Positions 13,251 to 33,538 are shown, counted from the stretch's first letter. The stretch is DNA of 64,000 bases from Myxococcales bacterium (GCA_016707895.1 JADJGV010000002.1:335695-399694); one strand, 5' to 3'. The notes: generated by a model not told the origin, from the sequence alone. Translations and numbers: made by a program.

Positions 13251-14246
13251 TCACGCGAGGGCGAGGTCGGCGTCGTCGAGGCCTCGGAGCCAGGTGGCGG
13301 CGAGGTCGGTGGGGGCGGGGATGTACCAGCGCGGGCGGACGAGCGCGCCGGGCGGGTAGCTGGCGGTGATCGCCGCGGCGATCTCGTCGGTGTCGGCGGA
13401 GGCGAGCTTGCGCAGACGCTCGGAGGCGCGCTTGTAGTGGTCGCGGAAGGTGGCGTAGGCGGCGAGGAAGCGCGCGCGGACGCGGACGCAGAAGGCGTGG
13501 CACGCCGGTGCAGGCGACGGCTCGAGCTTGTTGAGGGGCGTCGCATCGGGATCCTCGGCGATCACGCGACCCGCGCCGAGGACGGCGGCGCCGGCATGCT
13601 CGGCCTCGATCTCGGCGACGAGGGCGGCGTGCTTGGCGCGGAGCGCGGCCGGAGTGAGGTCGGCCCAGATGGGCAGCGGGGTGAGCGTGATGGCGACGTC
13701 GTGCGCGAGCTCGGCGTCGGAGTGCGGCTCCGGGCGGCGGGCGTTGCGGCGGCGCGCGTCGAGCGAGCGGTAGACGGCGGGGATGGTCATGTCGCCGAGC
13801 AGCGCGGGCGTCGAGCAGGCGCCGGGCCAGTCGCGCGGCGAGGCGACGAGGTTGGACGTGGGGCCCTGGGCGAGGATGTAGCGGAGGCGATCGATCTGGG
13901 CGTCACCATCGAGGACGGCGATGACGCTGCCGCGGCGGCTCCAGAAGACGCCTTCGCGATCGCGGAGGTCGTTGAGTTGACGGGCGATGTTGCCGTGAAC
14001 GTAGTCGATGAAGAGCGGCAGCTGATCGGGATCGTGGTCGGCCGAGCAGAGGTAGTGGAGGTGGTTGGATTGGGCGTCGAAGGCGTAGAGGCGGACCGCG
14101 GTGTAGAGCGCGAGTGCCTTGCCGAAGACGCCGTCGATGATCGCGCGGCACGCGGGATCGGGGCGCAGCCAGAAGTGGCCGCCCAGCGTCCGGATCGTCA
14201 CCTCGTAGAGCAACTGCGCCACGTAGAACCGCTGTCGATGCGCCAT
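13251..14246 (-). CDS. IS200/IS605-family Y1 HUH transposase (COG1943, RayT-like), with a long C-terminal extension
   Basis: HuH motif SNHLHYL. Catalytic Tyr helix RLRYILAQGPTSNLVASPRDWP matching the RayT/IS200 pattern Y..NP..LV..P.DWP. Start is an internal ATG (MAHRQRFYVAQ…). The upstream part of ORF 13251..14504 lies in a low-GC non-coding region. Confidence 0.7.
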   Translation of the reverse strand: MAHRQRFYVAQLLYEVTIRTLGGHFWLRPDPACRAIIDGVFGKALALYTAVRLYAFDAQSNHLHYLCSADHDPDQLPLFIDYVHGNIARQLNDLRDREGVFWSRRGSVIAVLDGDAQIDRLRYILAQGPTSNLVASPRDWPGACSTPALLGDMTIPAVYRSLDARRRNARRPEPHSDAELAHDVAITLTPLPIWADLTPAALRAKHAALVAEIEAEHAGAAVLGAGRVIAEDPDATPLNKLEPSPAPACHAFCVRVRARFLAAYATFRDHYKRASERLRKLASADTDEIAAAITASYPPGALVRPRWYIPAPTDLAATWLRGLDDADLALA

Positions 14247-14362
14247 GTGCCACCCCGGTCGGCGCCCACCGCGGGCGCATGGCCGGGCTATCGACCAGGC
14301 CGCGCGGCGGTTGCGTGGTTCGCGCGGACGGTCATGAGATCGTCGCGGGCGCGCCCCATGAA

Positions 14363-14402
14363 CCCCCGATCCGGTTGGCCCCGATGCCCCGATCCGGTTG
14401 GC
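14363..14402. promoter_or_regulatory. two copies of CCCCGATCCGGTTGGC (tandem direct repeat, 6-nt gap) ~35 nt upstream of the histone-like gene
   Basis: Read directly. Lies between the divergent transposase and histone-like genes. Confidence 0.4.
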
Positions 14403-14436
14403 TGCAACCCGTTTCAGGGAGGCCGATTCCCAATGC

Positions 14437-14841
14437 ATGTTGGTCGACATGGAGGACGGAGACAGAGTAAAGGACGTGGCCGGCTCCGGCTTCGCGTACT
14501 TCATGGATGTCGTGACCGTGCTGGAGGTCCTGGAGGCCTTCGGGAAGCGAAGGCCGAAGTTGGAAGAGAAGCTCCGCCTGCTCAGCCACTACGCGGAAAA
14601 CGACGCGTACCCGGAGTGGGTGTTCGCGAAGGTGACCAAGGCCCCCAAGCGCGCCAAGCCGACCGAGCGCGCCAAGCCGACCAAGCGCGCCAAGCCTGCC
14701 AAGCGCGCCAAGCGCGCCGCCGAGCGCGAGGCCGCGAAGGCCACCAAGCCTACGAAGGCCACCAAGCCTACGAAGGCCACCAAGCCCTCCAAGCCCGCGA
14801 AGGCCACCAAGGCCAGGACCACCACGCCCCGGAAGCGCTAG
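14437..14841 (+). CDS. small DNA-binding-like protein with histone H1-like Lys/Ala/Pro-rich repetitive tail
   Basis: GGGAGG lies ~15 nt upstream of the ATG. Globular N-terminus, then KAPKRAKPTERAKPTKRAKPAKRAKRAA…ATKPTKATKPTKATKPSKPAKATKA. The antisense ORF 14332..15054 is the mirror image of these repeats. Confidence 0.55.
   Translation: MLVDMEDGDRVKDVAGSGFAYFMDVVTVLEVLEAFGKRRPKLEEKLRLLSHYAENDAYPEWVFAKVTKAPKRAKPTERAKPTKRAKPAKRAKRAAEREAAKATKPTKATKPTKATKPSKPAKATKARTTTPRKR
14643..14832 (+). repeat. in-frame coding tandem repeats (18-nt and 21-nt units) encoding the AKP/TKA tail
   Basis: GCGCCAAGCCGACC… and GCCACCAAGCCTACGAAG… units repeated in tandem within the CDS. Confidence 0.5.
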
Positions 14842-15098: not shown

Positions 15099-15422
15099 CT
15101 AGATCGGGCGCCGGCGCCAGTAGCCCGGGCGTCGCTTCGCGTGAGCCACAGCGATGACATCGATCGTGTCGGCAAGGACCACGTAGACGACGCGATACGG
15201 GAATCGCCGCACCTTGATCGAACGGATGTCCGGTGCCAGCAAGATCGGATGCGCCTGCGGGAGCCCAGCGATCAAGACGAGGGCGCCTTCGATCGCGGTG
15301 GCGAACCGCTGACCGCGGCCTTCGCGTTCGCGCTCATAGTAGGCGACGGCCTCGATGAGTTCCCGCGCCGCCGCCGGACGAAACGAGATCAGGTCTTCAG
15401 CGCGCGCTTCACGTCCGCCCAT
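15099..15422 (-). CDS. ParE/RelE-family type II toxin
   Basis: …LISFRPAAARELIEAVAYY… matches the ParE N-terminus. Size ~100 aa. Overlaps the upstream antitoxin gene. Confidence 0.7.
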   Translation of the reverse strand: MGGREARAEDLISFRPAAARELIEAVAYYEREREGRGQRFATAIEGALVLIAGLPQAHPILLAPDIRSIKVRRFPYRVVYVVLADTIDVIAVAHAKRRPGYWRRRPI

Positions 15423-15598
15423 GACACCCCCGGCGCCCCACCGCGCGCCTCCGCGGCCCGCCGTTCGAGCTCGGCGTGATCGTCGATCGAGATCCCGGGC
15501 GGGGCCTCGACGCTGTCGAGCAAGTGCGCCGCCAGCTCCTCGCGCTCGGCGGCGGAGAGCGCCATCGCCTCGTCAAGGAGCTGCACCACCGTGGCCAT
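15389..15598 (-). CDS. putative antitoxin (addiction-module component)
   Basis: Small acidic helical protein (MATVVQLLDEAMALSAAEREELAAHLLDSVE…) directly upstream of, and overlapping, the ParE gene. Confidence 0.6.
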   Translation of the reverse strand: MATVVQLLDEAMALSAAEREELAAHLLDSVEAPPGISIDDHAELERRAAEARGGAPGVSWADVKRALKT

Positions 15599-15699
15599 GT
15601 GTGACCGTACCAGTGCCTGGTATCCTCGCCAAGAGTTTCGACGGCGCCACGCGGTTGTCACCGCGCTGTCGCATTCGAGGCCTACCGCCGAGGGTGACC

Positions 15700-17406
15700 A
15701 TGCACAAGCGCGCGTTGTGGACGATCCTGGTGGTGTTCGGGGTGCTGGCGGCGGCGGGCTGCAAGAAGAAGGTGGACGACGGCGGCGGCTCGAAGGGCCC
15801 GCCGTCGTCGACGCCGGCGCCGCCGACCCAGCCGGCGGTCGAGCTGCGGATCGCGTACGGCAGCGAGAAGAAGGCGTGGCTGGAGGAGCAGATCAAGGCG
15901 TGGAACGCGACCGGGCCCAAGACCGCGGGCGGGGCGCCGATCAAGGCGGTCGGCGCGGCCAGCGGCTCGGGCGAGGCGATGCAGGCGGTCCTCGACGGCA
16001 AGAGCCGGCCGCACGTGTTCAGCCCGGCGTCGTCGGCGTACGTCGCGCTGCTCAACCAGGCGTGGCTGTCGCGCGACAACCACACCAAGGCGCTGGCGCC
16101 GGCCGGCGAGCCGATCGTGCTGTCGCCGATCGTCATCGCGATGTGGAAGCCGATGGCCGAGGCGCTGGGCTGGCCCGGCAAGGACATCGGCTGGGCCGAC
16201 CTGGTCAAGCTGTCGCGCGACCCCAAGGGCTGGGCCACGTATGAGCGCCCCGAGTGGGGCACGTTCAAGCTCGGCCACACTCACCCCGAGTACTCGAACT
16301 CCGGGCTGCTCGCGGTGCTGGCCGCCGCGTACGCCGGCACCGGCAAGACCACCGGGCTGACCGCCGACGACCTCACCGCGCCCTCGACCCGCGCGTTCCT
16401 CACCGAGGTCGAGGACTCGATCGTCCACTACGGCAAGTCGACGAGCCTGTTCATCGACAAGATGGTCGAGCGCGGCCCGACGTACCTGTCGGCGGCCGTG
16501 CTGTACGAGAACCTCGTCATCGAGGCCAACTCGAAGACGCCCGCCCCGTCGCCGCCGCTGGTGGCGATCTACCCGGTCGAGGGCACGTTCTGGAGCGACC
16601 ACCCGTACGCGATCCTCGACGCCGAGTGGGTCGGGGCCGACGAGCGCGCCGCCGCCCAGGCGTTCCTCGCGTTCGTGAAGGCGCGGCCGGCGCAGGAGCG
16701 CGCGCTGGCGCTGGGCTTCCGCCCCGCCGATCCCGCCATCGCCATGGCGGCGCCGATCGACGCCGCGCACGGCGCCGATCCGCAGCAGCCGCAGACGCTG
16801 CTGGCGGTGCCCGACGGCGCGACGCTCGCGAAGCTGGTCGCCGCGTGGCGGGCCACCAAGAAGGCCAGCGAGGTGACGCTGGTGTTCGACAAGTCGGGCA
16901 GCATGGAGGGCCAGCCGCTGGCCGAGGCCAAGGCCGGCGCCGCGACGTTCCTCGACACGCTCGACGACCGCGACCGGGTGACGCTGGTGTTCTTCGACGA
17001 CAAGGTCTACCCGCCGATCGGCCCGGTCGAGCTGGGCCCGTCGCGGGCGATGCTGCGCCAGCGCATCGAGGGCACGATCGCCTCGGGCGGCACCGCGCTG
17101 TACGACGCGGTGACCGAGGCCCACGCGGCGATGCGCGGCAAGGTCGCCAAGAACCCGCACCGCATCCACGCGATGGTGGTCATGACCGACGGCGTCGACG
17201 AGAACTCCGTGACCACCTTGCCCAAGGTGACCAAGCAGGTCACCGTCGAGGGCGACGCCGCGGTCAGCATCTTCACGATCGCCTACGGCACCGAGACCAA
17301 CCCCGACGCGCTCACTCAGATCGCGGAGAAGTCGCGCGGCACCTTCTCGCGCGGTAGCGTCGCCGACATCCGCGCGGTGTTCCGCGACATCGGCACGTTC
17401 TTCTGA
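15700..17406 (+). CDS. lipoprotein with N-terminal periplasmic solute-binding-protein-like domain fused to C-terminal von Willebrand factor A (vWA) domain
   Basis: GAGGGTG RBS. Lipobox LAAAGC. Substrate-binding-protein-like domain of ~400 aa. vWA MIDAS motif in VTLVFDKSGSMEG. The upstream part of ORF 15355..17406 is non-coding. Confidence 0.8.
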   Translation: MHKRALWTILVVFGVLAAAGCKKKVDDGGGSKGPPSSTPAPPTQPAVELRIAYGSEKKAWLEEQIKAWNATGPKTAGGAPIKAVGAASGSGEAMQAVLDGKSRPHVFSPASSAYVALLNQAWLSRDNHTKALAPAGEPIVLSPIVIAMWKPMAEALGWPGKDIGWADLVKLSRDPKGWATYERPEWGTFKLGHTHPEYSNSGLLAVLAAAYAGTGKTTGLTADDLTAPSTRAFLTEVEDSIVHYGKSTSLFIDKMVERGPTYLSAAVLYENLVIEANSKTPAPSPPLVAIYPVEGTFWSDHPYAILDAEWVGADERAAAQAFLAFVKARPAQERALALGFRPADPAIAMAAPIDAAHGADPQQPQTLLAVPDGATLAKLVAAWRATKKASEVTLVFDKSGSMEGQPLAEAKAGAATFLDTLDDRDRVTLVFFDDKVYPPIGPVELGPSRAMLRQRIEGTIASGGTALYDAVTEAHAAMRGKVAKNPHRIHAMVVMTDGVDENSVTTLPKVTKQVTVEGDAAVSIFTIAYGTETNPDALTQIAEKSRGTFSRGSVADIRAVFRDIGTFF

Positions 17407-17417
17407 GATCTCCACGC

Positions 17418-18194
17418 ATGGCTCGCTCTCCCTTCGCTCGCGTCTTCGCCCGCGCCGCCGGCGGTCCGGTCAACCTCGGCGTGGCCGGGGCCGCGGTGGT
17501 CGGCGCGGTCGCGCTGGCCAGCTGGCCGATCGCGGTGCTCGGCGGCGCGGCGTACGCGGCGCTGGTCGCGGTCGACATCACCAACAGCGGCTTCCGCCGC
17601 AAGGTGCTGTCGGGGCGCGACGAGCGGCCGACGCTGCCGGATCCCAAGACCCTCGAGGACCCCGCGCTCAAGAAGGCGGCGACCGCGGTGGCCACCGCCC
17701 GCGCGGAGATCGAGCGGGTCGCCAAGGGCGTCCCCGACCGCATCCGCAAGAACGTCGCCGGCTCGCTGACCGCCACCGACGAGCTGGTCGGCCACGCCGC
17801 CGCGCTGATCCTGCGCGGCGACGCGCTGGCGCGCTACCTGGCCAAGGCCAGCCGCGCCGACGCCACCCTCGAGGTCGACCAGCTCGACGCGCTGGTGGCG
17901 GCCGCGACCGACGACGCCGCCCGCCAGCAGTACGCGCTGGCGGCCGAGGCGGCGCGCGCGCGGGTGAAGTCGCTCGACGACATCGCCAAGGCCCACCAGC
18001 GCATCCTGGCCAACCTGACCCGGCTGGTCGCGGCGCTGCGCGGCGTGCCGACCAGCCTGGTGTCGCTGCAGGCCCTCGACGATCAGGCGTCGGACTCGCT
18101 CACCGGCAACGTCAGCGGCGATCTGGAGCGGATGAACATCGAGCTTCGGGCGTTCGAGGACACCCTCGCAACCCTGGTGGAGGTACCGACGTGA
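17418..18194 (+). CDS. membrane protein with two N-terminal TM helices and coiled-coil C-terminal region
   Basis: Starts 12 nt after the upstream stop. Its stop overlaps the next start (GTGA). No family recognised. Confidence 0.6.
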   Translation: MARSPFARVFARAAGGPVNLGVAGAAVVGAVALASWPIAVLGGAAYAALVAVDITNSGFRRKVLSGRDERPTLPDPKTLEDPALKKAATAVATARAEIERVAKGVPDRIRKNVAGSLTATDELVGHAAALILRGDALARYLAKASRADATLEVDQLDALVAAATDDAARQQYALAAEAARARVKSLDDIAKAHQRILANLTRLVAALRGVPTSLVSLQALDDQASDSLTGNVSGDLERMNIELRAFEDTLATLVEVPT

Positions 18195-19399
18195 AGCAGA
18201 AGGTCGCGATCATCGGAGCGTTCGTCGCGTTCGCCGTGGTGCTGATCCTCGTGGTCGGCGGCGGCGGCAAGAAGAAGGGCGGCGACAAGCCGGCGCCGGG
18301 CCCCGCGGTCGGCAGCGGCTCGGGGACCACCCCGGCGCCGGTCGGCAAGGTCACCGTCGAGTTCCTGTACTCCAGCGAGAAGAAGGACTGGGTCGACGCG
18401 GCGGTCGTCGAGTTCGAGAAGGCCAACCCCGACGTAGACGTGGTCGCGACCAGCAAGGGCTCGCTCGACGCCGCCACCGGGATCCTCGACGGCAGCCTCA
18501 AGCCGGTGCTGTGGAGCCCGGCCGACTCGCTGATCGTCAACCTGCTCGCCACCGACTGGCAGACCAAGTACGGCAAGCGGCCGTTCCCGGCCGACGGCGA
18601 GGCCGGGCCGCAGCAGCTCCTGCTGTCGCCGCTGGTGTTCGCGGTGTGGGAAGACCGCGCCAAGGTGCTGATGGCGGCGTCGGGCGGCGACGGCCTGACG
18701 TGGAAGGCGATCCACAAGGCGGTCACGTCGCCCAAGGGCTGGTCGGCGATCGGCGGCAAGCCGGGCTGGGGCTTCGTCAAGCTCGGCCACACCGACCCCA
18801 ACAAGTCCAACTCGGGCCTGCAGGCGCTGTTGCTGATGACGCTCGAGTACTACACCAAGACCAGCGGCCTCACCGTCGACGAGCTGCTCGACGAGAAGTA
18901 CCAGACGTGGGTCAAGGAGATCGAGAAGGGCGTGCCGACCTTCGAGGCGTCGACCGGCACGTTCATGACCGACATGGTCCGGTTCGGCCCGTCGAAGTAC
19001 GACATCGCGGTGGTCTACGAGAGCCTCGCGATCTCGCAGCTCGAGAACGCGCAGGGGCGCTGGGGCAACCTGCGCATCTACTACCCGCCGGTGACGCTGT
19101 GGAGCGATCACCCGGTGGTGATGCTCGGCGGCGACTGGGTCACGCCGGCGCAGGCCAAGGCCGGCGAGCGGCTGATCGCCTACCTGCGCGGCCACGAGGC
19201 GCAGAGCATGGCGCTGCGGTTCGGCTTTCGGCCGGCCGACACCTCGCTGCCGCTCAAGACCAGCGACGGCGCCAACCCGTTCACGCGGCTCGCGCAGTAC
19301 GGCCTGGCGCTCGAGCTGCCCGAGGCCGCGACCGCGCCCGACGGCGCGGTGGTGCGCAACCTGCTGATGATGTGGTCGCGCGTCGCGCGGCCGCAGTAG
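18191..19399 (+). CDS. periplasmic solute-binding-protein-like protein (paralog of the N-terminal domain of 15700..17406)
   Basis: Alignable to the first gene of the operon (KLGHTDPNKSNSGLQALLL vs KLGHTHPEYSNSGLLAVLA; FGFRPAD in both). Single N-terminal TM helix or signal. Confidence 0.8.
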   Translation: MKQKVAIIGAFVAFAVVLILVVGGGGKKKGGDKPAPGPAVGSGSGTTPAPVGKVTVEFLYSSEKKDWVDAAVVEFEKANPDVDVVATSKGSLDAATGILDGSLKPVLWSPADSLIVNLLATDWQTKYGKRPFPADGEAGPQQLLLSPLVFAVWEDRAKVLMAASGGDGLTWKAIHKAVTSPKGWSAIGGKPGWGFVKLGHTDPNKSNSGLQALLLMTLEYYTKTSGLTVDELLDEKYQTWVKEIEKGVPTFEASTGTFMTDMVRFGPSKYDIAVVYESLAISQLENAQGRWGNLRIYYPPVTLWSDHPVVMLGGDWVTPAQAKAGERLIAYLRGHEAQSMALRFGFRPADTSLPLKTSDGANPFTRLAQYGLALELPEAATAPDGAVVRNLLMMWSRVARPQ

Positions 19400-19993
19400 C
19401 TACTTCTTCAGCACCAGCACCGTCAGGACGCCCTGCAGCTGCGGCGCGGTGGCGCTGGAGACGTTGGCGGTGGCGGCGTTGGGGTCGGGGGCGATCACCT
19501 TGACCTCGACGGTGTGGTTGCCCGGCGCCAGGTTGTACGAGCGGGCCATCGACCAGCTGGCGATCATCTGACCGACCGCGGCGGAGTTGGCGGCGACCAC
19601 GCGGCGCACGCCGCCCTGGTTCGACGCGATGCCATCGACGAAGATCGCGACGTCGACGACCGAGTAGGCGGTGCCGACGGCGGTGCACTGGATGCCGCCG
19701 TTGGTGCTGACGTGGACCGCGGCGTTGTCGGGCACGGTGATCACCTGCTGCAGGCCGGGGATCAGCACGTAGCTGGTGAACGCCGAGGTCACCGCGAGCT
19801 GGCCGGTGCCGTAGATCTCGTAGAGGTTCTGGCCGGTGGTGCCGGCGGGGCCCGCTGGCCCGGTGTTGCCGGTCTGGCCGGTCTGGCCGGTCTGGCCCGG
19901 CGGCCCTTCGGGGCCGGGCTCGCCGTCGAGGCCCGCCGGCCCCGAGCAAGCGACCGCGAGCAGGAGCGTACCGATCGACCAGAGCGTGCGCAT
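19400..19993 (-). CDS. lipoprotein with collagen-like G-X-Y triplet repeats
   Basis: Internal ATG gives MRTLWSIGTLLLAVACSG, followed by GEPGPEGPPGQTGQTGQTGNTGPAGPAGTTGQ and a beta-rich domain. The longer upstream extension looks non-coding. Confidence 0.5.
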   Translation of the reverse strand: MRTLWSIGTLLLAVACSGPAGLDGEPGPEGPPGQTGQTGQTGNTGPAGPAGTTGQNLYEIYGTGQLAVTSAFTSYVLIPGLQQVITVPDNAAVHVSTNGGIQCTAVGTAYSVVDVAIFVDGIASNQGGVRRVVAANSAAVGQMIASWSMARSYNLAPGNHTVEVKVIAPDPNAATANVSSATAPQLQGVLTVLVLKK

Positions 19994-20039
19994 CGCGCCG
20001 ACGCTATCAGACGCCTCAGCGGCTGTGTCAGCATGCGGC

Positions 20040-21146
20040 ATGGGTCGCATCGCCGTGCTCGCCGTCGCCGTGCTCGCGTGCTCGAAGTCGTCGGTGCCGT
20101 CGCCACCGCCGCCGCCCGCCCCGCCGCCGGTCGCGCCCGTGGCCCCCGCGGCGCCCGCGAGCTGTCTGCGCGACGTCGGCCAGGTGCAGGCCGCGCGCGG
20201 CGCACCGAGCGCGCCGATGCGGCCCACGCACACCTTCTCGATCGTCGCGCGCGATCCGGTCACCGGCGATCTCGGCGTCGCGGTGCAGTCGCACTGGTTC
20301 GCGGTCGGCGCCGGCGTGACCTGGGCCGAGCCCGGCGTCGGCGCGATCGCGACGCAGTCGTTCGCCGAGCCGGCCTACGGGCGCAAGGGCCTCGAGCGGA
20401 TGCGCGCCGGCACCAGCGCCCCCGACGCGCTGGCCGCGCTGCTGGCCGAGGACGCCAAGCGCGACGTGCGCCAGGTGGCGTTCGTCGACGGCAAGGGCCA
20501 GGTCGCGGCCCACACCGGCGCCGCCAACATCGCGTTCGCCGGCCACCACACCGGCGCCGGCTACTCGGTGCAGGCCAACATGATGGCCAACGATCGCGTC
20601 GTGCCGGCGATGCGGGCCGCCTACGAGGGCGCGACCGGCGACCTGGCCGAGCGCCTGCTGGCCACGCTGGCGGCGGCGCAAGCGGCGGGCGGCGACGTCC
20701 GCGGCTGCCAGTCGGCGGCGATGCTGATCGTCAAGGGCACGCCCTCGGCCGAGCCGTCCCACGACACGCTGGTCGACCTGCGCGTCGACGACGCCGCCGA
20801 TCCGATCGCCGAGCTGGGCCGGCTGCTCAAGCTGCAGCGGGTCTACGACCACATGAACGCGGGCGACGGCGCGGTCGAGCGCGGCGACGTGGCGGGCGCC
20901 AAGCAGCACTACGGCGCCGCGGCGGCGGCCGCGCCCGAGCTGACCGAGGTCCGCTACTGGAGCGCGGTCGCGCTGGCCTCGGCCGGCGACGTCGACGCCG
21001 CGCTGCCGATGTTCACCAAGATCTTCGCCGAGGACAGCCGATGGATCGAGGTGACCCGCCGCATCCAGCCGGCGGTGGTGCCGGCCACCGCCGAGGGCGA
21101 CGCGGTGATCCAGAAGATCCTGACCGCCGCGCCGACGCCGCGCTGA
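20040..21146 (+). CDS. DUF1028-family (Ntn-hydrolase-like) lipoprotein
   Basis: Lipobox LACS. Conserved core [43 protein letters not shown]. The upstream part of ORF 19836..21146 is antisense to the collagen-like gene. Confidence 0.75.
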
Positions 21147-21173
21147 TCACGCCGGCGGGGTGATACGCTTGCC

Positions 21174-21770
21174 GTGATGGATCCGGATCGCGAGCTGCTC
21201 GAGCGCTGGCGCGCAGGCGACCAGGCCGCCGGCCGCGATCTGTTCGCGCGCTTCTTCGATCCGCTGTTCCGGTTCTTCGCCAACAAGTGCAACGAGCCCG
21301 ACGAGCTGGTCCAGGCGACGTTCTTCGCGCTGGTGAAGGCCCGCGATCAGTTCGCCGGCCGCTCGAGCTTCCGCACCTACCTGTTCACGATCGCGCGCAA
21401 CGAGCTGTACCGCTGGCTGCGCACCTTCAAGCGCGAGCGCGGCTTCGACCCCGAGCTGTCGTCGATCGCCGAGGTCGCGACCACCGCCGGCTCGCGGCTG
21501 GCCCGCAACGAGGAGCACCGCCGGCTGTGCGCCGCGCTGCGCACGCTGCCGGTCGAGTCCCAGACCCTGCTCGAGCTGCACTACTGGGAGGGCCTCGACG
21601 CCACCGCGCTGGCCGAGGTCTTCGACGCCCAGGTCGCCACCATCCGCCAGCGCCTCTCGCGCGCCCGGGTCGCCCTCAAGGACGCCCTGGCCGCCAGCGA
21701 GGGGGCCCCGCTGCCCGCGCTGGCCACGGTCGAGGACATGGATACCTGGGCGAAGTCGCTGGCGGGATAA
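21174..21770 (+). CDS. RNA polymerase sigma-70 factor, ECF subfamily
   Basis: Region 2 (…FFALVKARDQFAGRSSFRTYLFTIARNELYRW…) and region 4 (…ALAEVFDAQVATIRQRLSRARVAL…) are both recognisable. Confidence 0.85.
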   Translation: MMDPDRELLERWRAGDQAAGRDLFARFFDPLFRFFANKCNEPDELVQATFFALVKARDQFAGRSSFRTYLFTIARNELYRWLRTFKRERGFDPELSSIAEVATTAGSRLARNEEHRRLCAALRTLPVESQTLLELHYWEGLDATALAEVFDAQVATIRQRLSRARVALKDALAASEGAPLPALATVEDMDTWAKSLAG

Positions 21771-21788
21771 GGCTTTCGGCGGCCGTCG

Positions 21789-21801
21789 ATTTTCGGTCAC
21801 A
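21789..21801 (+). promoter_or_regulatory. TTTTCGGTCACA motif ~30-40 nt upstream of paralog A start
   Basis: Same 12-mer recurs at the equivalent position upstream of paralog B (22946..22958). Confidence 0.35.
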
Positions 21802-21828
21802 ACGCCGACCGACCTTCATCCATAGGGC

Positions 21829-22887
21829 ATGAAGCGAACCGTTGTGGCACTCCCGCTCGCCCTGGCTCTGGCCGCGTGCGTCGACAGCCCGGAGGTCGGG
21901 CAGGCTGAGAGCGCCGTGATCAACGGCGACGGCGACGAGTGCCCCAAGCTCGGCTGCAGCTCGAACTCGGCGTACCTCGGGCCGACCGAGTTCCACGAGC
22001 TGGAGGAGACCGGCCTGTATCCCAACGCCGAGGGGCTGTACTTGAAGGGCCTCATCAAGAACGGCGTCACGTGGCGCCCCGACGTCACCGGCACCGTGCT
22101 GACCGGCAGCCGGTGGGCGCTGGTCGCTGGCGTGTGGACGTACCAGACGCTCAGCGGGTCGAACCTGGTCAACGCGGAGCTGGTGGTGAAGAACGCCGCG
22201 GGCACCCTCGAGTACCGCATCCGCATCACCAACGCCTCGCTGAGCCAGCAGTTCTGGCAGGCGCCGATCACGAACGTGAACACCTACGAGCTCAAGTGGC
22301 GGCAGGTGGTGCCGACCACGACCGACTTCGTCCCGGTCTGCAAGAACCCGCCGAACCGCGAGACCGAAGACGGTCCCACCCAGAACACGCTTGAGTCGAT
22401 CTTGTTTGCGGGCGATCGCTACGACACCGATACCCTGACGGTCACGGCATCGACGCCGGCCGAGGCGACGACCTGGTTCAACATCGGCTGCGCGGGCACC
22501 GTGCTGGCCAAGCTCGCGCTCAACCGGCACACCGACGCGACGAAGTCGGCGCAGGTCACCGCCACGCGGGCCCAGCGTCAGGCGATGCTCAAGATGTACA
22601 CGTCGGACGTGTGCAACAGCGGTGACGCGCTAACGGTCAGCGGCACGCCGCTGCGCTGGTGGAGCCCCACCGGCCTCACCAACAAGGCGATCCCGACGAC
22701 TTCGAAGGAGGCCTTGTGGACCGCCAACGGCGCGATCTGCCTCGACACCCACCGGCTGAACGGCACGGCCGACGACATGACCAAGCAAATCGAGGACGCC
22801 TGCAAACGGGTCAACCGCCCGGTCCCGCCGCCCTGCATGGACGCCTCCGGGGCCTGGGCCTTCCGGACCGAGAGCCAGGCACACTAG
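21829..22887 (+). CDS. lipoprotein of unknown function, tandem paralog A
   Basis: Lipobox LALAAC. Shares the conserved block CPKLGCSSNSAYLGPTEFHELEETG and overall collinearity with 22987..24069. Confidence 0.75.
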   Translation: MKRTVVALPLALALAACVDSPEVGQAESAVINGDGDECPKLGCSSNSAYLGPTEFHELEETGLYPNAEGLYLKGLIKNGVTWRPDVTGTVLTGSRWALVAGVWTYQTLSGSNLVNAELVVKNAAGTLEYRIRITNASLSQQFWQAPITNVNTYELKWRQVVPTTTDFVPVCKNPPNRETEDGPTQNTLESILFAGDRYDTDTLTVTASTPAEATTWFNIGCAGTVLAKLALNRHTDATKSAQVTATRAQRQAMLKMYTSDVCNSGDALTVSGTPLRWWSPTGLTNKAIPTTSKEALWTANGAICLDTHRLNGTADDMTKQIEDACKRVNRPVPPPCMDASGAWAFRTESQAH

Positions 22888-22910
22888 ATCAGCGATCTCA
22901 AACGGTTGGC

Positions 22911-22950
22911 GCGCGGGGTCACCGAAATGGGGTGACCCCGCGCTCTTTTT
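22911..22950 (+). terminator. rho-independent terminator (13-bp GC-rich stem, 7-nt loop, TCTTTTT tail)
   Basis: GCGCGGGGTCACC-gaaatgg-GGTGACCCCGCGC followed by TCTTTTT, directly after the paralog A stop. Confidence 0.7.
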
Positions 22951-22958
22951 CGGTCACA
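22946..22958 (+). promoter_or_regulatory. second copy of the TTTTCGGTCACA motif, upstream of paralog B
   Basis: Overlaps the terminator T-tract. Spacing to the ATG is the same as for paralog A. Confidence 0.35.
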
Positions 22959-22986
22959 GGGCCCAGCTGCTCGTATCAATCCCGGC

Positions 22987-24069
22987 ATGACGCGACACAT
23001 TCTGGCACTCGCGATGGCGCTGGCGGCGGCGGGCTGCGTCGAGGACCCGACGCTCGGCACGGACCAGAGCTTGGTCAAGAACGGCAACGGCGACGAGTGC
23101 CCGAAGCTCGGCTGCAGCTCCAACTCGGCCTACCTAGGCCCGACCGAGTTCCACGAGCTCGAGGAGACCGGCACCTACGCCAACGATGAGGGCTTTCGGA
23201 TCACGAGCTTCACCAAGACGGTGGGCAGCGTGACCACGACCTACCGCCCCGACGTCTCCGGAACGACGCTGGTGGGCAAGCGGTACAGCATCTTGATCCA
23301 CGGCTGGTACACCGCGCTCAGCGGGCCCGACCTGGTCGGCGCGGTGTTCAACGTCGAGCGCACGGTCGACGGCCTCGTCACGGCGAGGTACCAGATCAGG
23401 ATCACCGCGGCCAGCACCGCGCAGGAGTACTGGCAGCCGCCCGCCGGACTGCTGAACACCTACGAGCTGCAGTGGCGCATGGTCTACCCGAGCTCGACCC
23501 ACCTCGTGCCGGTCTGCAACAACCCGCCCAACCGCCTCGACGGCGAGGGGACGTGGTGGCGTAAGACCACCGAGGCCGTGCTGTTCACGGGCGACCGCTA
23601 CAACAGCGACTCGTTGACTGTGACCGCTGGCGATCCCGCGTCCTCGGGCGACTGGTTCAACATCGGCTGCTCGGGCACGGTGCTGGCCAAGCTGGCCCTC
23701 AACCGCCACACCTACGCGACCCAGTCGTCGACGGCACCGACCACGATCGCCCAGCGCCAGGCGATGCTCAAGATGTACACCTCCGACGTGTGCAACACCG
23801 GCGATGCGTTGACGGTCGTCGGCACGCCGCTGCGCTGGAACAGCACCACCGGTCTGGCGAGCCCGCCGATCGCGGTCAACAGCTACGAGGCGCGGTGGAC
23901 TGCGGCTGGCGCGATCTGCCTCGACACCCACCGCACGAACGGCACCGCCAACGACATGGACGTGCAGATCGCCGAGGCCTGCGCGGTCGCAGGCAAGGCG
24001 GTGCCGCCCCCCTGCGCGGGCGCGCCGACCAGCTACTACCTGCGGACCACCAGCCCGGCGCTGCCCTGA
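22987..24069 (+). CDS. lipoprotein of unknown function, tandem paralog B
   Basis: Lipobox LAAAGC. Alignable end to end with paralog A. Confidence 0.75.
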   Translation: MTRHILALAMALAAAGCVEDPTLGTDQSLVKNGNGDECPKLGCSSNSAYLGPTEFHELEETGTYANDEGFRITSFTKTVGSVTTTYRPDVSGTTLVGKRYSILIHGWYTALSGPDLVGAVFNVERTVDGLVTARYQIRITAASTAQEYWQPPAGLLNTYELQWRMVYPSSTHLVPVCNNPPNRLDGEGTWWRKTTEAVLFTGDRYNSDSLTVTAGDPASSGDWFNIGCSGTVLAKLALNRHTYATQSSTAPTTIAQRQAMLKMYTSDVCNTGDALTVVGTPLRWNSTTGLASPPIAVNSYEARWTAAGAICLDTHRTNGTANDMDVQIAEACAVAGKAVPPPCAGAPTSYYLRTTSPALP

Positions 24070-24079
24070 CCGACCGCCA

Positions 24080-26590
<2,511 letters not shown>

Positions 26591-26608
<18 letters not shown>

Positions 26609-26663: not shown

Positions 26664-27334
26664 TCATCCCACGCGCGCGAGCGAGACCAGGCCGCCCGCA
26701 AAGAGCTCGGGGAACCGGGCGCGCAGGCGGTCGCGATCGCGGTCGGCGTCGGCGACCCAGGCCGCCGGCACCTCGACTGTGCGTGTGGGGCGCGGCGCGT
26801 CGGCCGCGGGCCACCACGCCACGGCTAACGCGCCGTCGTCGGCGACGGCGTCGACGATCAGGCTCGAGCCCGCCGCGGCGAACTCGGGGGCGTTGGCCAG
26901 GAGGCGGGCCTTCACGCACTCGATCAGCGCGTCGTCGTGGCCGTGCTGCCACAGCACCAGCTTCTCCCGCAGCCCCTCGTAGCCGCGCACCAGGCGGACC
27001 CGGTTCGGCGCGAGGTGGGTGACCAGCGGCGAGCCGTGCGTAAAGCCGCGGGCCACGCCGTCGAACAGCGCGCGCTCGTGATCGCGCCAGGCCGGCCAGG
27101 CCGACGGCGCTAGCGCCATCACCCAGTGGCCGCGTTCGAGGTCGGTGTACAGGATCGACCGCGCGACCTCGATCCGCGCGCCGCACGCCTCGCACGCGAC
27201 CTGATGGAAGCGCCGGGCCAACACTGCCGCCCGCACCGCCGGCACCCGCGACCCGTGGATGCCGCGTGCCAGCTCGGCGCTGGTCGAGCCGTCGCAGTGC
27301 GGGCACGTCAGCGTGCGGATCTCCCAGGTCGACA

Positions 27335-27335
<1 letters not shown>
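26664..27335 (-). CDS. CpXC-domain (zinc-ribbon-like) protein
   Basis: CPHC…CEAC motif pair. Its ATG overlaps the TGA of the upstream AAA+ gene (ATGA), so start is an internal ATG of ORF 26664..27557. Confidence 0.6.
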
Positions 27336-29344
<2,009 letters not shown>

Positions 29345-29950: not shown

Positions 29951-32900
29951 ATGACCCGCGACCAGCGCGATCGCGAGCACGCCGAGCCCGAGCACGTCAC
30001 CCACCGCGCCCGGCCGCGCAACGCGCGCGGCGACGACGCCGTCGTCGAGGACGAGCTCGACTCGGCCGAGGCGTGGCGTCAGGTCGACGAGATCCTCACC
30101 CAGCACGCCGGCGGCGAGCGTCTGCCGGGGCTGGCCCGGTCGCTCGACGCCACCGGCAAGGCCCAGCTGGTCGCGCGCATGAACGACCTGCGCGCGTTCG
30201 CGGGTGACGTCGTGTGGGACACGCTCCTGGCCACCGGCAACTCGCTGGCGTTCGCCATCACCTTCGCGCCGTACGGGGCGACGCCGGTGAGCAAGGAGCG
30301 GGTCCGCAAGCACGTGGAGCGGCTGCGCGCCGCCGATCTCGCGGACCTGACGGGGCTGCCCTTCGTCGAGCTGCGCAAGTACTTTCCAGGCAAGCTCGCC
30401 GACGAGTTGCCCACCCTGGTGCGCGACCTGACGGGCCTGACCGGAAACGCCGACGTCGTGGGGTGGTGGCTGACCACCACCGAGCCGAAGCTCGCCGCGC
30501 ACCGCCTGGCCGCGGTCGCCGACACGGCGCTGGCCAAGACCTGCGACGAGGCGCAGCTGTGGGGATGGCTCGACGATCTCGATGGCGCGTCCGCGTACTA
30601 CGGGCTGCCCGAGCTGTGGAAGGCGACGAGCGACCCGACCGCCAAGGCCAAGCTGGCGGCCAAGCTCGGGCCGCTCGCGACCGAGGATCCCGAGTTCGCC
30701 GCCGAGGGCGATCTGCACAAGCCCGAGGTCCAGGCGGTGGTGAAGCGCCGCGGCTCGGCCGCGGAGCTGCTCGACGCCACGGCGCTGGCGCGGGGGCGCG
30801 GAGACGCGTCGGTGGCCGACGTCCTGGCCACGCTGCGTCGCGATCCTCCGACGCCGACGCAGGCGGTGCAGATCCTGGCCACCCTGACGTACGAGCCGAT
30901 CGCGGTCGTGGTGCCGCCCCTGCTCGAGGTGCCGGGCGTCACGGCGACGCACCTGCTGACCTTGTGGGCGAACTTCGGCTACTCCGAGCAGGCTGCGGCG
31001 CTGCGTGACGACCGCCTGCGCGCCGCGATCAAGAAGCGGCTCGGGCCGGGGGTCCCGTTGCGCGCGCTGGTCGACACCGCGTACGTGAAGGCCGCGGAGC
31101 TCGCGCCCGACGAGGCGCTGCGGCGCTGGTGGATCGCCGACGCGGCGCCCGCCGACGCGCTGTGGCTGGTCGCCTCGGGATCACCGTCCGAGTGCGCGGC
31201 CGCGTGTCGGGCGTTGCGCAGCGACGGCGCCGGGCTGAGGTGGGCCAAGCAGCTCACGGCCCAGGACAACCAGGAGCAGCTGCGGGTCCTCGCCAACAAC
31301 TGCGGCGACCCCGCGACCACGGCCCGCCTGCGCGAGTCGGTGATTCGCGAGTGGTCGTGGGATCCCATCACCGCCGGTCAGCGAGAGGACGCCGAGATCA
31401 CGGGCCCGGCGCGGCCCCGGCTCGACGCGGCGGTCCACGACCCGACGGCCGACCGGGTCGCGCGGCTGGCGGATCTCGACGACGCCGAACGGGCGGCGCT
31501 CGCCCGCGATCCCAAGGCGGTCAGCGAGTTGACGGCGCACCTCGACCAGGACGAGCTGGTCCGCGCGCTGGCGTTGCTCGACCTCACCGTCGCGAGCGCG
31601 ATCCGTGCCACACCGGCGCGCGGCTACCACCGCGGCGTCGTCGAGTACCTCCGGACCCGCCCGGCCGGCGAGGAGGCGGAGGTGTTCGAGCACGCCGACC
31701 TGATCGATCGCGCCACGGGGCACGTCCACCCCGACCCGCTGCTGGTGCTGCCCTCGTTGCGCCAGCCCAAGCGCCTGGTCCAGGCGATCGCGCTGGTGCC
31801 GGCGGTCGTCGAGCGGCTGCTGGCGGGGAGCGACCCGAGCCTGGCGCTGCGGTTGCTCGATGATCCGTTGGTGCGCCCCAAGGCGGCGCCCTATCTGGCC
31901 GGGCGCCCCGAGGCGCTCGACGCGCTGCCGCGCTACGAGCACCTGACCGCGCGAGGCCAGACCGCGTTCGACGAGCTGGGGCGAGCCGCGGGCGCGCAGC
32001 GCGGCGGTGACGAGGTGCGCGACGTCGTGGCCGAGATCGCTGACGGTACGTACGAGGACGGCGCCGCGAAGGCCGCGGCGCGCGGGGCCACGCTGGACAA
32101 CGCGCGACAGCAGGCGACGATCGATGGCGCGGTCGCAGCGCTCGATCAGGGCGCCAGCGAGACCGCCGACGCGATGGCGCTCGTGCACCAGTTCCGCGGT
32201 CAGATCCCGGCGCTGATCGCCGATCCGGCGCGGTGGCCGACCGTCGATCGCCTGCGCGCGCTGATCGGCATGCTGCCGACGGTGGCGTTCCCCGAGCTCT
32301 CGCCGGCGACGTTGCTGCGATCGATCAACACCCGGCGCTGGATGTTCGAGGACGCCCAGGGGTTCCTGTTGCTCGGCGCCTTCGCGAAGGATCCCGGCGC
32401 GGCGGTGCTGGTGGCCGTGGCGTTGTTCGACGACGAGCCCGGGGCCCGGGCGTGGTTGCGGCGCCTCCCCCGCGCCGCCGGCCTGACCGATCGCGAGGAG
32501 GACTGGCTGGACAAGCTCGCGTCGCTGGTCGCCGATCCCGACGTCCTGCGCGATCTCTTCCTGGTGCGGTTCGGGATCGCGGCGCCGGCGCAGTACGCGT
32601 CGGCGACGCTGCACACGCTCTACGAGACCTTGTCGCGGTTGCCCGACGGCCACCTGCAGCAGGAGCGCATCAAACAGGTCGTCTCCACCGACGCCGGGGT
32701 TGGCGTCGGTGGGTACTGGGCGGAGGATCTCAAGACGATCGTGATCGACGACGAGATGGCACCCGACAAGGCCACCGACGAGACGCCGGAGCGCGCGTCG
32801 TGGATGACCCGGGCGCAGGTCGCGGAGCGCTACGGGTTCGACGACGCCGCACTGGCGGCGCAGGTTGCGGCCGGGCACGTCGAGCAGCGGGCCTTCGACG

Positions 32901-33538
32901 AGGGGACGCTGTACAAGATCGCCACCGTCGTCCAGGACAAGTTCACCTCGACCGTGCTGCACGAGGTCGGGCACGCCGTCGACGAGATCCTCGGCACGCA
33001 GACCGAGGTGATCTACGACCGCGCCGGCTGGCGGAAGTACGGGATCGATCAGTTCGAGACCTGGGCCGCCGAGGCCGGCGGCTGGGACAAGGTCGCTGCC
33101 AAGGATCGCGCGCCGATCCGCCAGGCCTGGGTCGACTCGCTCTTCACGCGCCGCGCCGTCAAGGAGCTGGTGCCGGACGACCACCCGGCGCTGGCGGCGC
33201 GCTACGCAGGCGTCGGGCTCGTCGACGACGCCCGAGCCGACCGCAAGAGCGAGTACCACGAGCGCAACCAGCACGGCGATCGCGTGTTCGTCTCGCAGCC
33301 GCACTACCAGGCGTTCTACTCGGTGCCGTTGCGCACGTCGCAGGTCGCCCCGTCGGACTACTCGATGTACGCGCCCGAGGAGTACTTCGCCGAGTGCTAC
33401 GTCGAATACTACCGCGAGGTCGACGGCACACCCGAGGGGCAGCGCAAGAAGGGTGGCGTGCTGCCGGTGTGGATCAAGCAGTGGTTCGATCAGCACGTCG
33501 ACCGCGTGCGGTTCGACCCCAAGCGCATGAAGCCCTGA
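29951..33538 (+). CDS. large (1195 aa) cytoplasmic-type protein with C-terminal HExxH zinc-metallopeptidase-like motif
   Basis: VLHEVGHAVDE plus a downstream EEYFAE (possible third-ligand Glu) within the last ~250 aa. Long helical, Ala/Leu/Asp-rich N-terminal region. No signal peptide. Antisense ORF 31181..33739 is rejected. Confidence 0.75.
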   Translation: MTRDQRDREHAEPEHVTHRARPRNARGDDAVVEDELDSAEAWRQVDEILTQHAGGERLPGLARSLDATGKAQLVARMNDLRAFAGDVVWDTLLATGNSLAFAITFAPYGATPVSKERVRKHVERLRAADLADLTGLPFVELRKYFPGKLADELPTLVRDLTGLTGNADVVGWWLTTTEPKLAAHRLAAVADTALAKTCDEAQLWGWLDDLDGASAYYGLPELWKATSDPTAKAKLAAKLGPLATEDPEFAAEGDLHKPEVQAVVKRRGSAAELLDATALARGRGDASVADVLATLRRDPPTPTQAVQILATLTYEPIAVVVPPLLEVPGVTATHLLTLWANFGYSEQAAALRDDRLRAAIKKRLGPGVPLRALVDTAYVKAAELAPDEALRRWWIADAAPADALWLVASGSPSECAAACRALRSDGAGLRWAKQLTAQDNQEQLRVLANNCGDPATTARLRESVIREWSWDPITAGQREDAEITGPARPRLDAAVHDPTADRVARLADLDDAERAALARDPKAVSELTAHLDQDELVRALALLDLTVASAIRATPARGYHRGVVEYLRTRPAGEEAEVFEHADLIDRATGHVHPDPLLVLPSLRQPKRLVQAIALVPAVVERLLAGSDPSLALRLLDDPLVRPKAAPYLAGRPEALDALPRYEHLTARGQTAFDELGRAAGAQRGGDEVRDVVAEIADGTYEDGAAKAAARGATLDNARQQATIDGAVAALDQGASETADAMALVHQFRGQIPALIADPARWPTVDRLRALIGMLPTVAFPELSPATLLRSINTRRWMFEDAQGFLLLGAFAKDPGAAVLVAVALFDDEPGARAWLRRLPRAAGLTDREEDWLDKLASLVADPDVLRDLFLVRFGIAAPAQYASATLHTLYETLSRLPDGHLQQERIKQVVSTDAGVGVGGYWAEDLKTIVIDDEMAPDKATDETPERASWMTRAQVAERYGFDDAALAAQVAAGHVEQRAFDEGTLYKIATVVQDKFTSTVLHEVGHAVDEILGTQTEVIYDRAGWRKYGIDQFETWAAEAGGWDKVAAKDRAPIRQAWVDSLFTRRAVKELVPDDHPALAARYAGVGLVDDARADRKSEYHERNQHGDRVFVSQPHYQAFYSVPLRTSQVAPSDYSMYAPEEYFAECYVEYYREVDGTPEGQRKKGGVLPVWIKQWFDQHVDRVRFDPKRMKP

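Follow-up and report, generated by a model that had tools for sequence, protein, structure and literature searches.

A putative kinase-linked ECF sigma factor cassette with dedicated promoters ahead of ADYC-domain lipoprotein genes in Myxococcota

What does an extracytoplasmic function (ECF) sigma factor transcribe, and what controls it, when its gene is followed by genes for lipoproteins and no anti-sigma gene lies nearby? The question is raised by a locus within a 64,000-nt stretch of DNA (73% G+C) from a Myxococcales bacterium (GCA_016707895.1 JADJGV010000002.1:335695-399694), the whole of which is referred to here as the window. On the + strand a sigma factor gene is followed by a 58-nt spacer, the lipoprotein gene LP1, a 99-nt spacer and the lipoprotein gene LP2, with a Ser/Thr protein kinase gene on the - strand ending 10 nt past LP2. 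Gene coordinates are based on a listing of open reading frames (ORFs) together with the window sequence, with domains assigned by Pfam. An initial annotation had described an ECF sigma factor gene and two tandem paralogous lipoprotein genes, a description borne out by the ORFs, Pfam and BLASTP. The overall reading reached here by comparison of related loci, to which we would give a probability of about 65%, is that the sigma gene, one to three genes for lipoproteins of the Pfam family ADYC and the convergent kinase gene form one signalling cassette that has been multiplied in myxobacteria of the Kofleriaceae/Haliangiales type.

The 12-mer TTTTCGGTCACA is present exactly twice in the 64 kb, on the coding strand at 21790-21801 and 22947-22958, ending 27 nt ahead of the ATG of LP1 and 28 nt ahead of the ATG of LP2, in keeping with the earlier observation of a shared 12-mer at a like distance from both genes. 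Additional sites in the 64 kb are limited to two near-copies with 2 mismatches each, and when the LP1 and LP2 upstream regions, which have otherwise diverged, are aligned, no other long block is conserved. The 12-mer comprises the -35 hexamer of a predicted bipartite promoter of ECF type together with the AT-rich flank that precedes it. In P(LP1) (21790..21824, + strand) TTTTCG (21790-21795) is followed by the -35 hexamer GTCACA (21796-21801), a 17-nt spacer and the -10 hexamer TCCATA (21819-21824), leaving 4 nt (GGGC) to the ATG at 21829. In P(LP2) (22947..22981, + strand) the corresponding elements are TTTTCG (22947-22952), GTCACA (22953-22958), a 17-nt spacer and TCAATC (22976-22981), with 5 nt (CCGGC) to the ATG at 22987, and neither promoter is followed by a Shine-Dalgarno sequence. 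When a position weight matrix derived from other loci, with the window left out, was applied to all window positions on both strands, P(LP2) ranked first and P(LP1) third, with no match upstream of the sigma gene of the window.

The two lipoprotein genes appear to be separately transcribed. An intrinsic (rho-independent) terminator for LP1 is located at 22911..22951 on the + strand, with a 13-bp G+C-rich stem (hairpin 22911-22943) followed by TCTTTTT and a predicted folding energy of -32.2 kcal/mol (z = -6.0; 0/200 shuffles equally stable), as had been anticipated in the initial annotation. The T-tract of this terminator overlaps the AT-rich flank of P(LP2) such that one run of T residues has both roles. 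The terminator between the genes, together with a -35/-10 pair for each, supports LP1 and LP2 being independent transcription units, as previously proposed. A terminator in the spacer after the sigma gene was considered and rejected, the hairpin there being no better than shuffled sequences (z = +0.4), such that read-through of the sigma gene may be a second route to transcription of LP1.

To place these promoters in a wider context, 56 loci were taken from an ADYC profile scan, using one genome per species, and searched with the window proteins by tblastn, giving 57 loci including the window. All 56 come from metagenome-assembled genomes (MAGs) assigned to Kofleriaceae, Haliangiales, Nannocystaceae or unclassified Myxococcota/Deltaproteobacteria. 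The upstream regions of ADYC genes at distant loci contain G(T/G)(C/A)AC(A/G)-N17-TCTA(C/T)C, with a spacer that is occasionally 16 or 18 nt and an AT-rich stretch before the -35 element. A strict form of this pattern (G[TGA][CA]AC[AG]-N16-18-[TC]CTA[CT]C) matched 45 times in 1.59 Mb, with 30 matches in the 300 nt that precede ADYC starts, 4 ahead of sigma genes and 11 elsewhere; the 300-nt zones upstream of ADYC genes make up ~1.4% of the sequence searched (binomial p ~3e-45 for 30/45). Sites matching at 11-12 of the 12 positions were found upstream of 72% of ADYC genes. The corresponding figures were 13% for sigma genes, 0% for kinase genes and 2.2% for random 300-nt windows. The kinase gene was rejected as a member of the regulon, the motif being present at 0/38. 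Autoregulation of the sigma gene in the window was likewise rejected on the lack of a matrix match upstream and the low proportion (13%) of family sigma genes with a near-consensus site. At four loci (L012, L032, L034 and L043) the sigma gene is itself preceded, at a distance of about 100-200 nt, by a consensus promoter, which would make autoregulation a feature of a minority of cassettes, in some lineages, and not of the window.

The expectation that paralogs elsewhere would carry the motif held for the bipartite motif class and failed for the exact 12-mer. One example is a second cassette (L057, 4236-9710) on a contig that encodes P0097, a protein with the same NCBI locus-tag prefix, IPH44, as the MAG of the window. 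This cassette has the order sigma>ADYC><kinase ADYC>, the additional ADYC gene and the kinase gene being divergent. One of its promoters, GACACA-N17-TCTACC, is followed by a 31-nt leader containing GGGAGG, while the other, GACACG-N17-TCTACC, ends 5 nt before the ATG. In a sister MAG (L001, 6684-10064) there are three tandem ADYC copies compared to two in the window, each with a TTTTTCGGTCAC(A/G) promoter. The second and third are preceded by a hairpin-TTTTTCGGTCAC unit and the first carries the 12-mer without a significant hairpin, which indicates that a terminator-promoter-gene unit was gained or lost recently. Copying of this kind gives some substance to the idea that the 12-mer is a leftover of tandem duplication, shared by ancestry and without function, since LP1 and LP2 are tandem paralogs and all three L001 copies have a TTTTTCGGTCAC unit, two of them after a hairpin, as if copied with the gene. 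Such an origin is nevertheless highly improbable, with the 12-mer exact in upstream regions that have otherwise diverged and next to coding regions that are only 58% identical, and with the same -35/-10 arrangement at a fixed 17-nt spacing ahead of ADYC genes of only 30-50% identity in dozens of other genomes.

The spacing between -10 element and start codon was bimodal in a set of 35 well-scoring promoters. In the short class (17 promoters, 4-12 nt) a Shine-Dalgarno sequence was present in 0/17, while in the long class (18 promoters, 18-74 nt) a GGAG-like site was present in 16/18. This pattern of leaders and ribosome binding sites places the start of transcription just after the -10 element, as in a promoter, and the LP1 and LP2 mRNAs of the window are probably leaderless, starting at or next to the ATG.

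The identity of the sigma factor that uses these promoters was addressed by comparing the -35 element with the region of sigma that would contact it. Position 159 in sigma4 was T or S in 11/11 cassettes with GGAAC or GAAAC at the -35 element versus 1/13 cassettes with GTCAC (Fisher p 1e-5), while position 162 was mostly H with GGAAC/GAAAC and mostly S with GTCAC. This covariation is consistent with cognate recognition and is not proof of it. The sigma-E consensus has a GGAAC-like -35 element with an AT-rich upstream flank, a spacer of 16-17 nt and a TCTA- or TCAA-like -10 element. The promoters described here resemble RpoE-type (ECF02-like) promoters in being bipartite with a similar spacer and an AT-rich flank before the -35 element, while differing in the dominant -35 (GTCACA) and -10 (TCTAYC) elements of this lineage and in being usually located downstream of the sigma gene, ahead of the lipoprotein gene, with mostly no autoregulation.

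The motif might instead be used by another regulator, whether the housekeeping sigma, a different ECF sigma, a repressor or an activator. Myxobacterial genomes encode many ECF sigmas, the family of this sigma alone has 1683 database homologues at E <= 1e-20, GTCACA agrees with the sigma-70 -35 element TTGACA at 4/6 positions, and assignment of the motif to the adjacent sigma is based on sequence comparison. Against this, a sigma-70 scan of 20900-24300 found no promoter, leading to rejection of a sigma-70 promoter, and the elements are ECF-like, with a GGAAC-type -35 element, a TCTA-type -10 element and a 17-nt spacer. Within the fetched loci the motif clusters at ADYC genes, most of them beside a sigma gene of this family, and the -35 variant follows the region 4 residue of the adjacent sigma. 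Use by another regulator is accordingly judged unlikely, and the earlier suggestion that the shared promoter might be used by the adjacent ECF sigma gains support from the family-wide motif and from the match between -35 element and sigma region 4. It is very likely that the dedicated promoter of each ADYC gene is used by the sigma encoded next to it.

The sigma gene itself (21177..21770, + strand) encodes an ECF (group 4) sigma-70 factor of about 200 aa that contains only the sigma2 and sigma4 domains. It matches Pfam Sigma70_r2 (E 5e-12), Sigma70_r4_2 (E 4e-9) and Sigma70_ECF (PF07638, E 1e-9), the last over its full length, and NCBIfam TIGR02937 (90 bits, cutoff 43). The third-best NCBIfam match, TIGR02989 of a Rhodopirellula/Verrucomicrobium family, was under the cutoff of that model. 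The ORF could begin at a GTG at 21174, with the ATG at 21177 implied by the 100%-identical database protein P0121 (197 aa); over the compared length LP2, the sigma and the kinase are identical to the Myxococcales MAG proteins P0013, P0121 and P0241, respectively.

The targets of the predicted promoters are lipoproteins of the ADYC family. LP1 (21829..22887, + strand, 352 aa) and LP2 (22987..24069, + strand, 360 aa) both match Pfam PF20032, with E-values of 3.9e-26 and 2.6e-22 and scores of 92.7 and 80.2 bits, respectively (cutoff 27), in matches that span positions 1-175 of the 176 in the model. The initial annotation had found no recognisable domain in these proteins, which is corrected by these matches above the gathering score; its description of the two as collinear with an invariant N-terminal block was confirmed by BLASTP (58% identity, E 1e-138). 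Both have the signal peptide and lipobox cysteine of bacterial lipoproteins, with the lipobox LAAC (Cys17) in LP1 and AAGC in LP2, the N-terminus of which is MTRHILALAMALAAAGC. A lipobox cysteine was located at position 14-27 in 47/60 homologous genes, as recognised by pattern and not by a dedicated SPase II predictor. The block DECPKLGCSSNSAYLGPTEFHELEETG is identical in LP1 and LP2 and is a family-wide motif in an alignment of the ADYC homologues of LP1 and LP2 (alignment A2), in which 8 cysteines are invariant. Recent gene conversion as the source of this block was rejected because synonymous codons agree about as often in the block (identity 0.78) as over the gene as a whole (0.70), indicating purifying selection. 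A database search gave 127 ADYC homologues, 127/127 of which match PF20032, and those few for which a source is named are from Myxococcales/Kofleriaceae-type MAGs. When alignment A2 was used as the profile in an exhaustive search, 2532 cluster representatives were recovered at E <= 1e-3, of which the best 150 are, except for a few truncated proteins, nearly all stand-alone proteins of about 330-380 aa. In an AlphaFold2 (AF2) model of LP1 (pLDDT, the predicted local confidence score, 82; pTM, the predicted overall fold score, 0.81) the N-terminal half is beta-rich and the C-terminal half mixed. Residues 36-60 (CPKLGCSSNS..EFHEL) are the most conserved segment of the family, yet the part of the mature-protein model with the lowest confidence. 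No solved structural relative of ADYC was found, nor any literature on ADYC or PF20032.

The arrangement sigma> ADYC(1-3)> <kinase was present in 30/57 loci. Partial cassettes had sigma>ADYC only (8 loci) or ADYC>/<kinase only (7 loci), some of these at contig ends, and in 3 loci the sigma gene was located beyond the kinase gene, on its far side. A genome often has several cassettes, with 2-5 per MAG. Conservation of the other neighbours, which encode DUF1028-TPR, collagen-like, CpXC, AAA ATPase and SBP/VWA proteins, is confined to the closest relatives. Among the neighbouring genes no phosphatase, FHA protein or anti-sigma factor was found as a conserved partner, only unrelated genes.

The kinase (24080..26608, - strand, 842 aa, convergent with LP2) is a Hanks-type Ser/Thr protein kinase (Pfam Pkinase, E 2.8e-32, 112.6 bits) with GAGGMGVV, VALK, HRDFKPDN and DFG in its translation, all of them invariant in an alignment of the family (alignment A3). 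Its ORF extends to a TTG at 26701, while the identical database protein P0241 is of 842 aa. A cytoplasmic kinase domain is joined through one transmembrane helix to an extracytoplasmic domain of ~510 aa with conserved cysteines, which is all-helical and TPR-like. In the AF2 model (pLDDT 86 overall) helices extend over residues 329-838 with the pLDDT of the ectodomain above 90, and a weak match to TPR_12 is the only Pfam match there. Full-length homologues of the ectodomain are all fused to a kinase domain except for P0291, which has TPR only.

No anti-sigma gene is present in the cassette: the spacer that separates the sigma gene from LP1 contains no ORF, and the neighbouring genes gave no Pfam match to an anti-sigma domain. 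The initial annotation had regarded this as unusual; the lack of the gene within the cassette stands, while the situation is of a known kind, that of kinase-linked ECF sigmas, with a kinase gene syntenic in most related loci. The absence of an anti-sigma gene would be explained if the cassette belongs to the ECF systems linked to a Ser/Thr kinase. ECF groups that are without an anti-sigma factor and are co-encoded with Ser/Thr kinases have been described, and direct phosphorylation has been demonstrated for members of ECF43 (PMC7826278, PMC8999054, PMC13147305). The cassette resembles the ECF43 systems EcfP/PknT of Vibrio parahaemolyticus and EcfK/PknS of Xanthomonas citri in having an ECF sigma without an anti-sigma gene and a transmembrane Ser/Thr kinase with an extracytoplasmic sensor, the Hanks-type kinase being syntenic in 30/57 loci, and also in the Ser/Thr residues of the linker between sigma2 and sigma4, where EcfK is phosphorylated (PMC13147305, PMC8999054). 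It differs in that the kinase gene is convergent with the target genes between it and the sigma gene, in the target, an ADYC lipoprotein, and in the taxon, Myxococcota.

A further difference lies within the sigma. In ECF43 the acidic DAED/DxxD motif of region 2.2 is absent and a phospho-acceptor Thr is present at this place (STTA/QTTA; PMC8999054). The cassette sigmas have E-x-D/E-E at the position of DxxD in E. coli RpoE; in the window this is E41-P-D43-E44, and E or D was present there in 44/44 cassette sigmas, without Thr. Membership of ECF43 was therefore rejected. Other kinase-linked groups are ECF59, 61, 62 and 217 in Planctomycetes, ECF283 in Actinobacteria and ECF267 in Proteobacteria, those outside ECF43 having a DAED-like motif (PMC8999054); like the cassette they are linked to a kinase and most are without an anti-sigma factor. 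ECF267 has a FecR-like TPR anti-sigma at position +1 and a protein kinase nearby (bioRxiv 10.1101/2019.12.11.873521). Membership of ECF267 was rejected on gene context, by the description of the group, as the gene at +1 encodes ADYC (PF20032) without a FecR match, with a kinase present.

Two features of the cassette sigmas could bear on their control. The linker between sigma2 and sigma4 is rich in Ser and Thr, with S97 conserved in 95%, S/T96 in 89%, T/S103 in 89%, S/T104 in 95% and S/T107 in 73%; by alignment this Ser/Thr cluster is conserved to an unusual degree. In region 2.2 the glutamate of a 'QE' pair is replaced by A, S or T beside an invariant T49. In addition, a tail of ~25 aa after region 4.2 (window 21690-21770, sigma residues ~172-198) is common to the cassette sigmas, with the motif L-D-x-W-A-(R/K) and the W present in 30/44, and this tail could be a docking or autoinhibitory element.

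Pairwise divergence was compared over 25 complete cassettes with Kimura correction and cubic controls. The partial correlation between ADYC and the kinase ectodomain was 0.45 (permutation p <= 5e-4), compared to about 0 between ADYC and the kinase domain and 0.10-0.17 between ADYC and sigma. For sigma the partial correlation was 0.59 with the kinase domain and 0.07-0.19 with the kinase ectodomain. This compartment-wise pattern fits a cytoplasmic contact between sigma and kinase and a periplasmic relationship between ADYC and the sensor, and is suggestive only.

Whether the kinase is the regulator of the sigma is the less secure half of the answer. The sigma may drive ADYC expression with the kinase acting on other substrates, while an anti-sigma factor encoded elsewhere, transcription alone or the conserved C-terminal tail governs the sigma. 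The acidic region 2.2 residues that are absent from ECF43, the position of the sigma gene close behind a DUF1028 gene in the window and its nearest relatives, the conserved tail of ~25 aa and the motif upstream of only 13% of sigma genes, such that other promoters may set sigma levels, all point in that direction. On the other side, the kinase gene remains syntenic over cassettes of only 35-60% identity and has diversified in parallel with them, the divergence of sigma follows the kinase domain specifically, the Ser/Thr cluster in the linker is unusually conserved, and known kinase-linked ECF groups are also without anti-sigma genes (PMC7826278). A sigma independent of the kinase is accordingly judged fairly improbable. 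Control of the adjacent sigma by the kinase is favoured, and that this control is exerted by direct phosphorylation of the sigma has a little less than an even chance.

Taken step by step, the sigma would bring RNA polymerase to the bipartite promoter ahead of each ADYC gene, with each ADYC gene in its own terminator-insulated unit. With no anti-sigma factor, the kinase would use its helical-repeat ectodomain to sense a signal in the envelope or periplasm and act on the sigma from the cytoplasmic side, most likely by phosphorylation. Candidate phosphosites are S96, S97, T103, S/T104 and S/T107 in the linker or the Q-[A/S/T]-T49 segment that is without the usual region 2.2 glutamate. More speculatively, the induced ADYC lipoprotein might join the sensor domain of the kinase in the periplasm as a feedback partner or co-sensor. 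A loop from lipoprotein to Ser/Thr kinase to ECF sigma to lipoprotein gene would fit with the retention of its own ADYC gene by every paralogous cassette, with ADYC being the only gene that consistently bears the motif and with ADYC divergence following the ectodomain of the kinase rather than its kinase domain. A partnership between ADYC and the kinase sensor domain is nonetheless doubtful, as is, to the same degree, the loop built on ADYC as periplasmic partner of the sensor; in such a partnership residues ~36-60 of ADYC, most conserved yet modelled with least confidence, could be the peptide bound by the TPR-like domain.

Several observations weigh against the cassette as reconstructed here. 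The data are comparative only and every related locus comes from a MAG. The -10 elements of the window, TCCATA and TCAATC, are degenerate forms of the consensus TCTAYC. The GGAAC group resembles a clade, such that the covariation between sigma4 and the -35 element probably reflects one or two evolutionary events. Like rates within each pair, fast in ADYC and the ectodomain and slow in sigma and the kinase domain, could yield the correlations in divergence and were only roughly corrected for. The sigma, in retaining an acidic region 2.2, is not 'intrinsically inactive' in the ECF43 sense (PMC8999054), and an anti-sigma factor may be encoded unlinked elsewhere in the genome.

Outside the conserved cassette, a gene for a DUF1028 and TPR protein (window 19836-21146, + strand) has its stop 27 nt before the sigma gene. 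Its product is probably a lipoprotein starting near 20040, the sigma gene may be co-transcribed with it, and the adjacency of the two is retained only in the closest loci (L001, L005 and L010). Divergent from the DUF1028 gene is a gene for a collagen triple-helix-repeat protein with a G-X-Y run (window 19400-20263, - strand) and an internal lipoprotein-like signal MRTLWSIGTLLLAVACSG, orthologues of which occupy the equivalent position in L001 and L005. Immediately ahead of the kinase gene (window 26664-29344, - strand) are genes for a CpXC zinc-ribbon protein and then an AAA ATPase with a winged-helix domain. Further away, window 15355-19399 (+ strand) contains a 258-aa ORF without a Pfam match, flanked on either side by a gene for an SBP_bac_11 solute-binding-like protein, in one case fused to a VWA domain, and two long ORFs with high G+C at third codon positions (29951-33538, + strand, 1195 aa; 13251-14504, - strand, 417 aa) have no Pfam match at E <= 1e-3.

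On these comparisons the cassette is a new, large and Myxococcota-restricted family of kinase-linked ECF signalling, and not a new principle. Kinase-controlled ECF sigmas are a recently established alternative to control by anti-sigma factors, the mechanism of which is so far understood only for ECF43, where phosphorylation restores the missing acidic patch; since the cassette sigma retains this patch, its gating mechanism should differ from that of ECF43. ADYC, a Pfam family with no function attached to it, gains a regulatory context and a predicted promoter. The layout of one sigma, one promoter and one target, with paralogous cassettes and -35 variants, makes sigma-promoter specificity, the insulation of paralogous cassettes from one another and leaderless expression directly testable. 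In envelope stress circuits such as CpxP-CpxA and RseB-RseA, and those of the lipoproteins NlpE and RcsF, a periplasmic protein of the regulon signals back to the sensor. Common to these and the cassette is a secreted or lipid-anchored protein encoded beside, and induced by, the signalling system, as is proposed for ADYC, the divergence of which follows the periplasmic domain of the sensor. If true, the loop between ADYC and the sensor would amount to a distinct type of trans-envelope signalling module, complete in itself and based on a fold without a solved relative.

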